From a virus (Duplodnaviria; Heunggongvirae; Uroviricota; Caudoviricetes), in the IMG/VR virus record IMGVR_UViG_2703718823_000005: 46,805 nucleotides of DNA, one strand, 5' to 3'. Made by a program: the position numbers. This document shows positions 39,001 through 42,000 of this stretch, one piece after another (positions within the stretch are counted from its first letter, which is position 1; each line of letters begins with the position of its first letter).

Positions 39001-42000
39001 CTCATCACATCGCGGTTCATTCTTCCGGAATGTCATCCAGTCTCCCCGAATTACTCATTTCATGCAGCGATGACACGATGTCACTGACAGGCGTAACAAC
39101 GCCCCGACGCTGGCTGGTCAGAATATCGGTTTCAGCTCTGAGTTTATCTCTGGCGGCGTTGATTCTTTCCCGGTCAGCACGAAGTTTTGGTGCTGTCTCA
39201 GCCAGGACGTCCAGCGTCAGCAATGAGCGTTCAATTGACTCGATACGGGCAATATTCCGGTCAAGGGCCTGTTCAGCTTTGAGTATTTTGTCGTAAAGAG
39301 CAACACGGGTTTCCACGTCAGTTGCCTCTTCCAGGTCGGCGAACATCCCTTTAAGTGCCTTAGTTACTGAAAGTGCGCGGGCCCGGGTGAACACCAGTTC
39401 ATCGAACAGCACCATATCGGACGCATCATCCATGAGGTTATCTGCCTCAAGATACTTCGCGTATCCACGGTGTCTTACAGCGTGGGTGTTTCGCTGAGAA
39501 AAAGCGTTTGAAGGTGGTAAAAGTCGGGAACCACGAATCCGTTTCGTTTCTGCCGAATTTGCGCAGTTTTTTTCAGAGTTTTTTGCGCATTTTTCATCGC
39601 CGGAACCCGCGTCATTGCAGGGTTCTTCATCTGAGATGTCATGATCGATTTCATGATCGGTTTTATGATCAATTTCATGATCGATTTTGCCCATTTTTAT
39701 ACGGGTTCTGGCGGTGTTGTAATTAATCTTTTTCTTCCGGCACCAGTCCAGTAATGTTATTCCCGTTTCGGCATGTTCGCGTCGGAATGCCTGCTCCAGC
39801 TTTTTCCAGTCCAGCTTTGCCATGTCACGTTCTGACGTCCTGTGTTAAAAACTGATGCATAATGACCGCTGTGATTTTTCAGATTTCACACAGCAGCACC
39901 ATATTTGATCGATATTTGCACAATGCGGTTGTTTTATCCGGTTTCTTCCACCACCGCACCGGACAGGCGGCTTCGCGGGAAATCGCTCCCATCTCGTGAA
40001 AAATGAGAAAACCCGGTGTGCATCGTTTTTGATTATCCCCGCACACTCACGCAGATAAGGTGGCTGCGGTCTCTGTTAATGCGGGAATACGGCGACGATG
40101 CGGCGCATGGCTATGTCAGGCTGAAATGCCTTTATCCGTTAAAAGGGATATCAGTTAAGTTATCCCGTGTAGGGTATAAGCCATTATCAAAGCCACTCTG
40201 TAGGGAATGGCTTTTGTAATAACTACTTCGCTTTTGCTTCCGCTCGCTTACGCCGGCGCTCTTCTTTCCTCTCGGCTTTTGCCATGTCCATGAATGCCTG
40301 CATGATCGAGTTCCGCATCATGTAGCTGACAAAGTGATGATTGACACAGCCGTTGAGGCGCAGCTGCTCGCCAAACTCATCCACCGAGGCCAATGCTTCC
40401 ATCATGCCCTTCTCGCCTTTCATGAACTCTGAGAAGTCGCGCCCCGCTCTGGAGGCGCATTCAATGACACGATCACTCATCCCGGAAGCCCGGGGATCGT
40501 AATCTGCAGCTGGTTAGCCAAGGAGTTAATCTCAGCGACCAACACTGGCTTCGTATAGCGCCATGCCGCGAGCCCTTGTCCACAGAAGCTCGCCATATCT
40601 TTTTTCTGATCAAACTCATGGCACTTCATATTGAGCTGCGCACTTAAGCTGTTGCGATGCTGAAGTTCTCCGGTGAAGTAGTCATCCAGGACTTTATAGG
40701 CTGCATATTTAAATCCGGGGTTTAGCCATGCTGCATAATCATAAGCAACAAACTTCCCGCCATATGTTCCACCGTGTACACCGCGCTCAGTAAAAACCAC
40801 AGATTCGTGGTTTTTCTCCAGCTCGGCTAAGAACTCTTTGGTCTGCTTGTTTCTCAGGTAGTGGTATGGAGATTCAGATTCACTTTTACCACTGGCTTTC
40901 CACATATCAGTGAGGCAGATCATGCCATCTTCAGCGACACGGATTGGCTGATTGAAGAGGGTTAATGATTTCATGTCGTATACCTGTTCTTTGAAATGAA
41001 CCTTTGCCGCATAGGAAACCAGCCCACCGAGGCTCGCCAGCACTAACTGGTATCCTCAAAGGCTCATTCCAAAGGGGCAGGTTCGGTGGTTATCATGCGC
41101 TGCGGTGCGCGGTGAAATTCAGATATGAAAAAGCCAGCGATCATGCTGGCTCTGTTAATTCAAGCACTGAGTGCGGATATATTCCTGAAGCGTTCTCAGT
41201 GCTGCCTGGTCGCTGATGATTCCGTCTCTGATACCGAGAACGTTTCGTCCAGCAACTGGAGAGAGTTCGACGCTGGCATCATTGCCCACGCCGGAGGTGC
41301 CGGTGGCTTCACGCACGGTACCGGGGCAGGTGGCGTTGAGCCGCAGGCGCTTACGACCAGCGGCAACATCAGCACGCAGAGTTTCATTTTCAGCTCTCGC
41401 ATCGGCTAATTCCCTCGAGTATTTAGCATCAAGCGCAGCAACATCACGCTGGCGCACCTGCATATCAGTAATGGTTGCGTTTGCCAGCTCCAGCTCTCTG
41501 ACTTTTTTATCTCGCTGCGCTTTGTAGGTGAGCGCGTTGTCACGGTAATGGTTTGTTGCCAGCCACAGCGCACCACAGCCAACCGCCAGGACAATAATCA
41601 CCACACACAGAACACGGTTCATCTCTCTTTCACCCCACCAGTCCCGATAACGTCAGGACTCGCCAGGCGGTGGAAAAGAAAATGGCAACCAGCATGACTA
41701 AAAATGAAATGCCGACGATTACACAGAGGATCTTCGCCAGCGTTATGAGTTTATCCGATATCATTAGCCACTACTCCATCAATCCGCCTTTGTTATTTTC
41801 CCTTTGCCTGTATCAGCTAGGACAAAATCAATCAGCAGATTCGCTTCGTTTATCAATGTGCGGATTTTTGATACATGCGCGGCTTTAACCTGTTTCCACT
41901 CATTCAGCCCGGTAGCAAACACACTGGCAATGTTTTTATCCCGTTTCATGTCAGCGCAAGCCTGATTGAGTTCTTCCATCACACTCATTCGACGGGGATT

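Follow-up and report, generated by a model that had tools for sequence, protein, structure and literature searches.

A four-unit GATC array inside the small terminase gene of a 933W-type Shiga toxin prophage is a candidate TerS recognition element akin to the phage P1 pac hexamers

The 46.8-kb stretch of viral DNA analysed here, IMG/VR record IMGVR_UViG_2703718823_000005 (called the window, by which we mean the whole stretch), carries a Shiga toxin (Stx) prophage of the 933W/Sp5 type. Our subject is an array of four Dam methylation sites (GATC) that lies inside terS, the gene for the small terminase subunit TerS. This gene sits directly upstream of terL, and the adjacency, together with a full-length profile match, places it in the small-terminase family phrog_370. 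The two terminase genes, the segments of terS and the repeats within and next to it have the following window coordinates.

37330..39036, - strand: terL, gene for the large terminase subunit, 20 nt of which overlap the end of terS (phrog_2, phrog_24361, phrog_38407; annotations)
39017..39823, - strand: terS, small terminase subunit, 268 amino acids (aa) (phrog_370, E 4e-125, residues 1-268; annotated so in many Stx phage records)
39689..39823, - strand: segment for a three-helix helix-turn-helix (HTH) DNA-binding domain, aa 1-45 (AlphaFold2 model; match to the P1 PacA family)
39461..39688, - strand: segment for a predicted disordered linker, aa 46-121, containing the GATC array and the two TGCGCA (pLDDT below 50)
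39638..39685, - strand: GATC array, four 12-bp units with one Dam site each; proposed TerS-binding (pac recognition) array
39558..39594, - strand: second 12-bp repeat with two TGCGCA (39560-39565, 39584-39589); E. coli class-A genes have the homologous pair at nt 292/304
39110..39436, - strand: segment for a long coiled-coil (presumed oligomerisation) domain, aa 130-238 (AlphaFold2 model)
39906..39911, + strand: isolated fifth TGATCG, in the same orientation as the array and 84 nt upstream of the terS start codon

The initial annotation had placed four Dam sites at 12-bp spacing inside a small terminase gene, and the coordinates as well as the phrog_370 match agree with this: the sites start at 39643, 39655, 39667 and 39679, in exact 12-bp steps. 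Tandem Repeats Finder delimits the repeat as 39635-39687 (period 12, 4.4 copies, 82% matches). On the + strand, the hexamers between 39642 and 39683 read TGATCG, TGATCG, TGATCA and TGATCG. On the coding strand, the four units ATC GAT CAT GAA, ATT GAT CAT AAA, ACC GAT CAT GAA and ATC GAT CAT GAC share the pattern ANY GATCA NRAN, occupy gene nt 139-186 and encode the peptide IDHE-IDHK-TDHE-IDHD (aa 47-62); the (K/E)(I/T)DH peptide repeat and the four consecutive TGATCR elements described at the outset are thus correct.

GATC is under-represented across the window, with 138 sites compared with 191 +/- 13 in dinucleotide-preserving shuffles (100 out of 100 shuffles had more). The array is the tightest foursome of these sites, spanning 36 bp where the runner-up spans 220 bp, and random placement of 138 sites produced a foursome within 36 bp anywhere in 2% of trials. 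It is also the sole cluster of at least three TGATCR within 60 bp in the 46.8 kb. No second TGATCR cluster was found in the window, where the nearest other TGATCR is the single copy at 39906. The even spacing of the array is explained by tandem duplication and does not call for four separate events. The key question is whether the repeat has a reason for being maintained. Another GATC pair exactly 12 bp apart was observed close to the right end of the window, at 46327-46342 (ACGATCATCAAAGAGATCATA).

An AlphaFold2 model of TerS, built on 37 homologues, predicts N-terminal helices at residues 6-20, 24-31 and 35-41 (pLDDT 74-86) and coiled-coil helices at 130-166 and 170-238 (pLDDT 78-97 per 10-residue block, mostly above 90). 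The predicted recognition helix, YNTARTR, covers approximately aa 35-41 (window 39701-39721), and the array begins five codons past it. Since the linker in which the array lies is predicted to be disordered, only weak constraint from the protein would be expected there. A Pfam search with TerS gave no match, a profile search of solved structures returned nothing relevant, and a Foldseek search of the model against the PDB returned coiled-coil noise only.

A close parallel is the pac site of phage P1, which consists of seven TGATCA/G hexamers with Dam sites inside pacA. Disrupting these hexamers synonymously lowers the phage titre ~9-fold, and the proposed model involves binding at the hemimethylated site and cleavage once it is fully methylated (PMC10028697). 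In the P1 record, which the pac sequence matched at 100%, an IHF site and the cleavage points are annotated between two hexamer groups inside pacA. The groups lie downstream of the HTH, at pacA nt 194-234 and 324-353, and encode M-I, D-H, D-Q and D-H (first group) and D-R, D-H and V-I (second group). The likeness extends to the proteins. Window TerS matches the PacA family phrog_1711 (E 3e-5, TerS residues 5-94), while P1 PacA matches phrog_1711 at E 4e-202 and phrog_370 at E 1.9e-4 (PacA residues 3-104); hhalign pairs TerS residues 6-48 with PacA residues 3-45 (43 residues, E 1.4e-4, probability 53%). The likeness is confined to the N-terminal part, the remainder of the protein not being homologous, and suggests that approximately 90-100 residues by PHROG, or 43 by hhalign, are remotely homologous to PacA.

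Further lineages of this kind emerged from an untargeted pattern scan of IMG/VR, in which three GATCA had to follow one another at 12-bp phase and which matched at least 120 loci. Among the matches listed, 14 of 120 lie inside open reading frames with a TerS-type HTH, including four Stx-type loci, and they include a 281-aa TerS group that carries four to five TGATCA and is 27% identical to window TerS (E 2e-24). Full-length homologues of PacA (426-437 aa) are encoded on two ~92-kb contigs and have five TGATCA each at exact 12-bp spacing directly after the HTH (L130, E 4e-30 to PacA; L199, E 2e-18). The N-terminus of L130 also matches window TerS (E 8e-10), so that this protein bridges the TerS and PacA families. 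The resemblance to the P1 hexamers that was originally noticed in the DNA alone is thus borne out by reciprocal PacA-family matches, by the L130 bridge and by TGATCA arrays that follow the same HTH in several lineages.

A different hexamer occupies the same place in sister lineages. Among terS homologues gathered from IMG/VR, GTDB genomes and public assemblies, those from E. coli (a group at 75% identity), Citrobacter, Aeromonas, Serratia, Yersinia and Dickeya have five to seven TGCGCA at gene nt ~130-230. Within these arrays the copies are mostly spaced 7-16 bp apart, commonly 9-14 bp, and use two or three reading frames (AQ, [VLM]R[KN], CA); the remainder of each gene has 0-1 copies. We assessed constraint at the DNA level by holding the protein fixed and resampling synonymous codons in 5000 trials. 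The resampled mean was 0.4-1.0 TGCGCA, and the observed count was never reached (P<2e-4 in 11 of 11 lineages). Pectobacterium terS carries five TTCGCA in two frames, again with P<2e-4. Arrays of one or the other hexamer were seen across L025-L109 and other loci, just after the HTH-coding segment. For GATC, synonymous resampling placed the HTH lineages found by the pattern scan above expectation (P 0.0002-0.027) and gave P 0.05 in P1; because a proven site yields only this value, the test has little power for GATC.

Two further genes (L112:1501-2316 and L113:1501-2334) join the same C-terminal TerS body to an unrelated N-terminal DNA-binding domain. They have neither TGCGCA nor GATCA arrays, and the repeats at the array spot are three copies of GTACGA, or three of AAWTCCG plus two of GGACGGACG, which suggests that the N-terminal domain and its site were exchanged together. 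Judged from these comparisons, the stretch of terS that follows the HTH is a hexamer array family-wide, constrained as DNA. Since it is constrained in this way and its repeat changes with the DNA-binding domain, it behaves like a site bound by the gene's own HTH. In the literature searched we found no description of TGCGCA arrays in terminase genes, and, to the extent of our searches, hexamer arrays paired with matching helices throughout the family have gone undescribed; we regard them as the more interesting by-product of this work.

In the window terS, four YGATCA take the place of the main TGCGCA cluster of its relatives, and two TGCGCA are kept downstream. This pair (39560/39584) is a remnant or a second part of the TGCGCA array of the sister lineages; nowhere else in the window do two TGCGCA lie within 30 bp of each other. 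GATC-type arrays are found on two backbones, those of E. coli Stx phages and of Salmonella prophages, with 3-7 YGATCA at identical gene positions and a changed recognition helix. In Salmonella prophage terS (57-61% aa identity), 3-5 GATCA lie at gene nt 142, 154, 166, 178 and 190, and the window array occupies the same nucleotides (142/154/166/178). The Salmonella units are AGT GAT CAA AAA, AGT GAT CAT AAA, AAC GAT CAT GAA and AAC GAT CAC AAT, the first of which corresponds to the class-A unit AGT GCG CAG AAA with GCG changed to GAT. Across 12 distinct GATC-type units no bases other than A1 and GATCA are constant, and the residues encoded vary (I/T/S/N, H/Q and K/E/N/D/I).

In 58 distinct sequences, the hexamer type follows the recognition helix without exception: ART[RQ]IK is paired with GATCA, ARR[YH][IL]K with TGCGCA and AKRYITIK with TTCGCA. 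GATC-type genes are 79-91% identical to the TGCGCA-type gene of their own host over aa 1-33 (64-67% otherwise) and 84-99% identical over the last 150 aa (63-65% otherwise). Because the E. coli and the Salmonella GATC-type genes are each nearest to the TGCGCA-type gene of their own host, helix and array have evidently changed together on two backbones, and this joint change could reflect two independent switches or the transfer of a small cassette. The recognition helix opens with NT[AG]R in every GATC-type lineage, P1 included, and in no TGCGCA or TTCGCA lineage. A simple code in which RY reads CG and T[RQ] reads AT was considered and rejected, since P1 PacA and the L162 lineage pair an ARRYL helix with TGATCA.

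Among close relatives, the terS region is 100% identical to that of Shigella phage Ss-VASD and of E. coli O157:H7 WS4202, and 99-100% identical to most of ~220 matching Stx phage records and ~430 E. coli records. Four units are the majority state. One unit occurs in P0020, two in P0016, five in L034 and P0025 and seven in L105; among the records listed, three-unit variants have a match span of 139 bp vs 151 bp at 92% identity, within a 90-95% identity band (29 records from phages, 17 from E. coli). With its copy number differing between near-identical sequences, the array is a variable-number tandem repeat, and some of the variants in draft assemblies could be assembly artefacts. Matches that break inside the array were considered as recombination junctions, a notion we rejected: they are IS629 or ISEc8 insertions in defective prophages. 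In L094 (LC727843 and ~8 similar Stx2a phage records), the array is left with three units that adjoin an IS629 end, and terS is truncated. In L095 (E. coli 7.1_Anguil), the array is split by an element of the ISEc8/IS66 family, and terS is likewise truncated.

What is known of the packaging mode comes from 933W, which carries out generalized transduction of chromosomal markers and whose virion DNA ends could not be sequenced, a result that was read as terminal redundancy (PMC3752737). Together, transduction and terminal redundancy are consistent with pac-initiated headful packaging. A methylase of the Dam family is encoded by 933W (16823-17350; PF05869, E 1e-64), and in GER2, one TGCGCA-type Stx phage, no gene annotated as Dam lies within 20 kb upstream of terS; as this amounts to one case each, we draw no conclusion about phage Dam and array type. 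The hosts are Dam-positive enterics, and Dam is reportedly required for stable 933W lysogeny, to go by the title of one study. The ends of database records were rejected as a proxy for physical ends, since those of the phage records we inspected are arbitrary or set at terL, as in phi296 and similar records, which start at terL and carry a generic note. That Dam controls packaging at the window array is plausible by analogy, although we would stop short of calling it probable.

On this comparative evidence, we propose that the array is probably that part of the pac site which TerS recognises in Stx phages of the 933W type, and that it is kin to the P1 pac elements. As in a P1-type pac, the hexamers lie inside the gene of the DNA-recognising terminase subunit, and there are several TGATCA/G with a Dam site in each. 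The initial suggestion of a candidate pac recognition element accordingly has comparative support; the two-cluster layout of P1 is absent. TerS would oligomerise through its coiled-coil domain, and each N-terminal HTH would read one YGATCA, the hexamers being approximately one helical turn apart in the linker-coding DNA. The TerS-DNA complex would then bring in TerL, which would make the first cut nearby, and headful packaging would proceed from there. Because the Dam site is central in each hexamer, one would expect methylation to govern binding or cutting, as it does in P1. We infer TerS binding at the array, the start of packaging, the position of the cut and the role of methylation alike.

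Several observations weigh against this proposal. The four hexamers are in a single frame and their units are recent duplicates, and they are therefore not independent of one another. Given the D-H peptide, the GATC count of the window terS is not significant (4 observed, 2.1 expected, P 0.11). The range of copy numbers among near-identical genes (1, 2, 3, 4, 5 and 7) fits a tolerated, slippage-prone linker as well as it fits a tunable site, and the IS629 and ISEc8 insertions beside or in the array occur in defective prophages. The second hexamer cluster that flanks the cut in P1 has no counterpart in the window, which instead has the two TGCGCA downstream; since these are kept, a switch of specificity may not have been a clean one. 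The helix rule is not universal, given that an ARRYL helix goes with TGATCA in P1 PacA and in the L162 lineage, and the association of helix and hexamer is based on few evolutionary events. Finally, the literature searched yielded no mapped pac site, packaged ends or PhageTerm result for 933W-type phages.

The main rival explanation, which we consider unlikely, is that the array is a neutral linker repeat prone to slippage. A 12-bp unit that happened to contain GATC would have been amplified by replication slippage, and TerS would read something else, such as the two TGCGCA or a site outside the gene. The variation from 1 to 7 units, the near-identity of the units and their single frame, the predicted disorder of the linker, the GATC count that is not significant given the peptide and the retention of two TGCGCA hexamers are all what slippage would lead one to expect, and amplification could have started from a lone ATT GAT GAT CAA AAA of the kind present in TGCGCA-type genes of E. 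coli. It is more difficult to reconcile with the Salmonella genes, where phased GATCA stand at identical positions in different units that encode different residues and GATCA is invariant. The array also recurs in several deeply divergent TerS/PacA lineages, the DNA of the equivalent arrays in sister lineages is under strong constraint, the recognition helix changes along with the array on two backbones, and GATC is avoided elsewhere in this phage, all of which argues for something beyond slippage.

Alternatively, the repeat might be kept for the sake of the protein, with the acidic, His-rich (K/E)(I/T)DH segment serving as a metal-binding or spacer element and GATC arising as a by-product of Asp-His codons. 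Histidine-rich repeats are able to bind metals, and D-H or D-Q is found in all GATC-type lineages, P1 PacA included. However, His and Gln interchange and the flanking residues vary (I/T/S/N and K/E/N/D/I) around a constant GATCA, and P1, L162 and L117 read some of their hexamers in another frame, as M-I or V-I. The sister peptides SAQK, VRK and CAK are unrelated and arise from one DNA motif in three frames; in addition, the segment is predicted to be disordered and tolerates 1-7 units, and synonymous hexamer changes cut the yield of P1 (PMC10028697). Selection on the peptide is thus improbable in our judgement. We give still less credence to the idea that the array is bound by a host GATC-reading protein such as SeqA, with effects on replication, late operon transcription or prophage stability. 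SeqA binds hemimethylated GATC pairs on newly replicated DNA and has clustered GATC as its targets, and four GATC approximately one helical turn apart would suit it. Yet such a role would leave unexplained the TGCGCA, TTCGCA and GTACGA arrays at the same place, the way in which the array type tracks the TerS helix and N-terminal domain, and the homology to PacA, whose hexamers are the pac site.

It is conceivable, though doubtful at this stage, that terS and pacA genes share one re-programmable system, in which hexamer arrays in the linker-coding DNA co-evolve with the first residues of the recognition helix and the Stx and Salmonella lineages switched from TGCGCA to TGATCA. Such a switch may have occurred independently or through exchange of a ~100-bp cassette, and would have led to a methylation-gated packaging start of the P1 kind, with support from the Dam that the phage itself encodes.

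Outside the terminase genes, three regions of the window attracted our attention. The interval from the lysis genes to terS (40223-41043) is occupied by a small phrog_875 gene and by a gene of the KilA-N/ORF11CD3 type. In other phages of the 933W type, bor or different genes are present at that spot, so that the region immediately upstream of the packaging genes is mosaic. The left end (102-186) contains a 44-bp tandem repeat in 1.9 perfect copies (100% match), within a stretch that lacks colinearity with E. coli WS4202. Positions 28471-28692 contain overlapping 9-, 45- and 63-bp tandem repeats rich in CCT/GGA/CCC, and in the aligned region of E. coli WS4202 the genes are annotated as tail-fibre C-terminal-domain proteins.

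Phages of the 933W/Sp5 type disseminate Shiga toxin genes and are capable of transducing the DNA of their hosts, and our searches found no published pac map for them. If our proposal is true, the array constitutes a defined target for blocking or tracking the packaging of Stx phages, it predicts where packaging series start and where pac-like sites lie in the chromosome, and it links packaging to Dam methylation. In addition, the matched pairs of HTH and hexamer (TGCGCA, TGATCA, TTCGCA and others) provide a natural series for studying how small terminases read DNA, a process that is still poorly understood.

Among the systems most closely comparable are the sister phrog_370 terS genes (E. coli phage GER2 type, Citrobacter, Salmonella, Aeromonas, Serratia, Yersinia, Dickeya and Pectobacterium), which share the gene, the domain layout and the position of the array. 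Their TGCGCA and TTCGCA arrays are likewise spaced by approximately one helical turn, and their unit ANT GCGCA RAAA resembles the GATC-type unit ANY GATCA NRAA. At the two central hexamer positions the sister arrays have CG, and hence no Dam site, where the GATC-type ones have AT. Moreover, the sister TGCGCA hexamers are written in 2-3 frames and go with an ARR[YH][IL]K helix, whereas the window array uses one frame.

The P1 system is also among them. In both phages the site, known or proposed, lies in the gene of the recognising subunit, just downstream of the segment for the N-terminal HTH, with four TGATCA/G in a row, each with a Dam site, and with D-H or D-Q encoded. P1 encodes its own Dam methylase, as 933W does, and generalized transduction is a further property in common with 933W (PMC3752737). 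In contrast, P1 has two clusters (4 + 3) ~90 bp apart that flank an IHF site and the cut, and the window has a single cluster; the hexamers are 7-15 bp apart in P1 and exactly 12 bp apart in the window array. The proteins, the 397-aa PacA of P1 and the 268-aa coiled-coil TerS of the window, are unrelated beyond their N-terminal part, and the recognition helices read NTARRYLR and NTARTRIK, respectively. P1 is a plasmid prophage and the window phage a short-tailed lambdoid prophage; cleavage and methylation dependence are known for the former and may hold for the latter by analogy.

P22 gene 3 and SPP1 gene 1 contain the pac sites of headful phages within small-terminase genes. Their TerS proteins and sites are not known to be related in sequence to those of the window, and P22 pac is a single asymmetric 22-bp site that is not known to involve Dam. 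The arrangement we propose for the window phage would nevertheless be the same as in P22 and SPP1: a site in the terS coding sequence that TerS binds, a cut by TerL nearby, and headful packaging with generalized transduction as a possible consequence.

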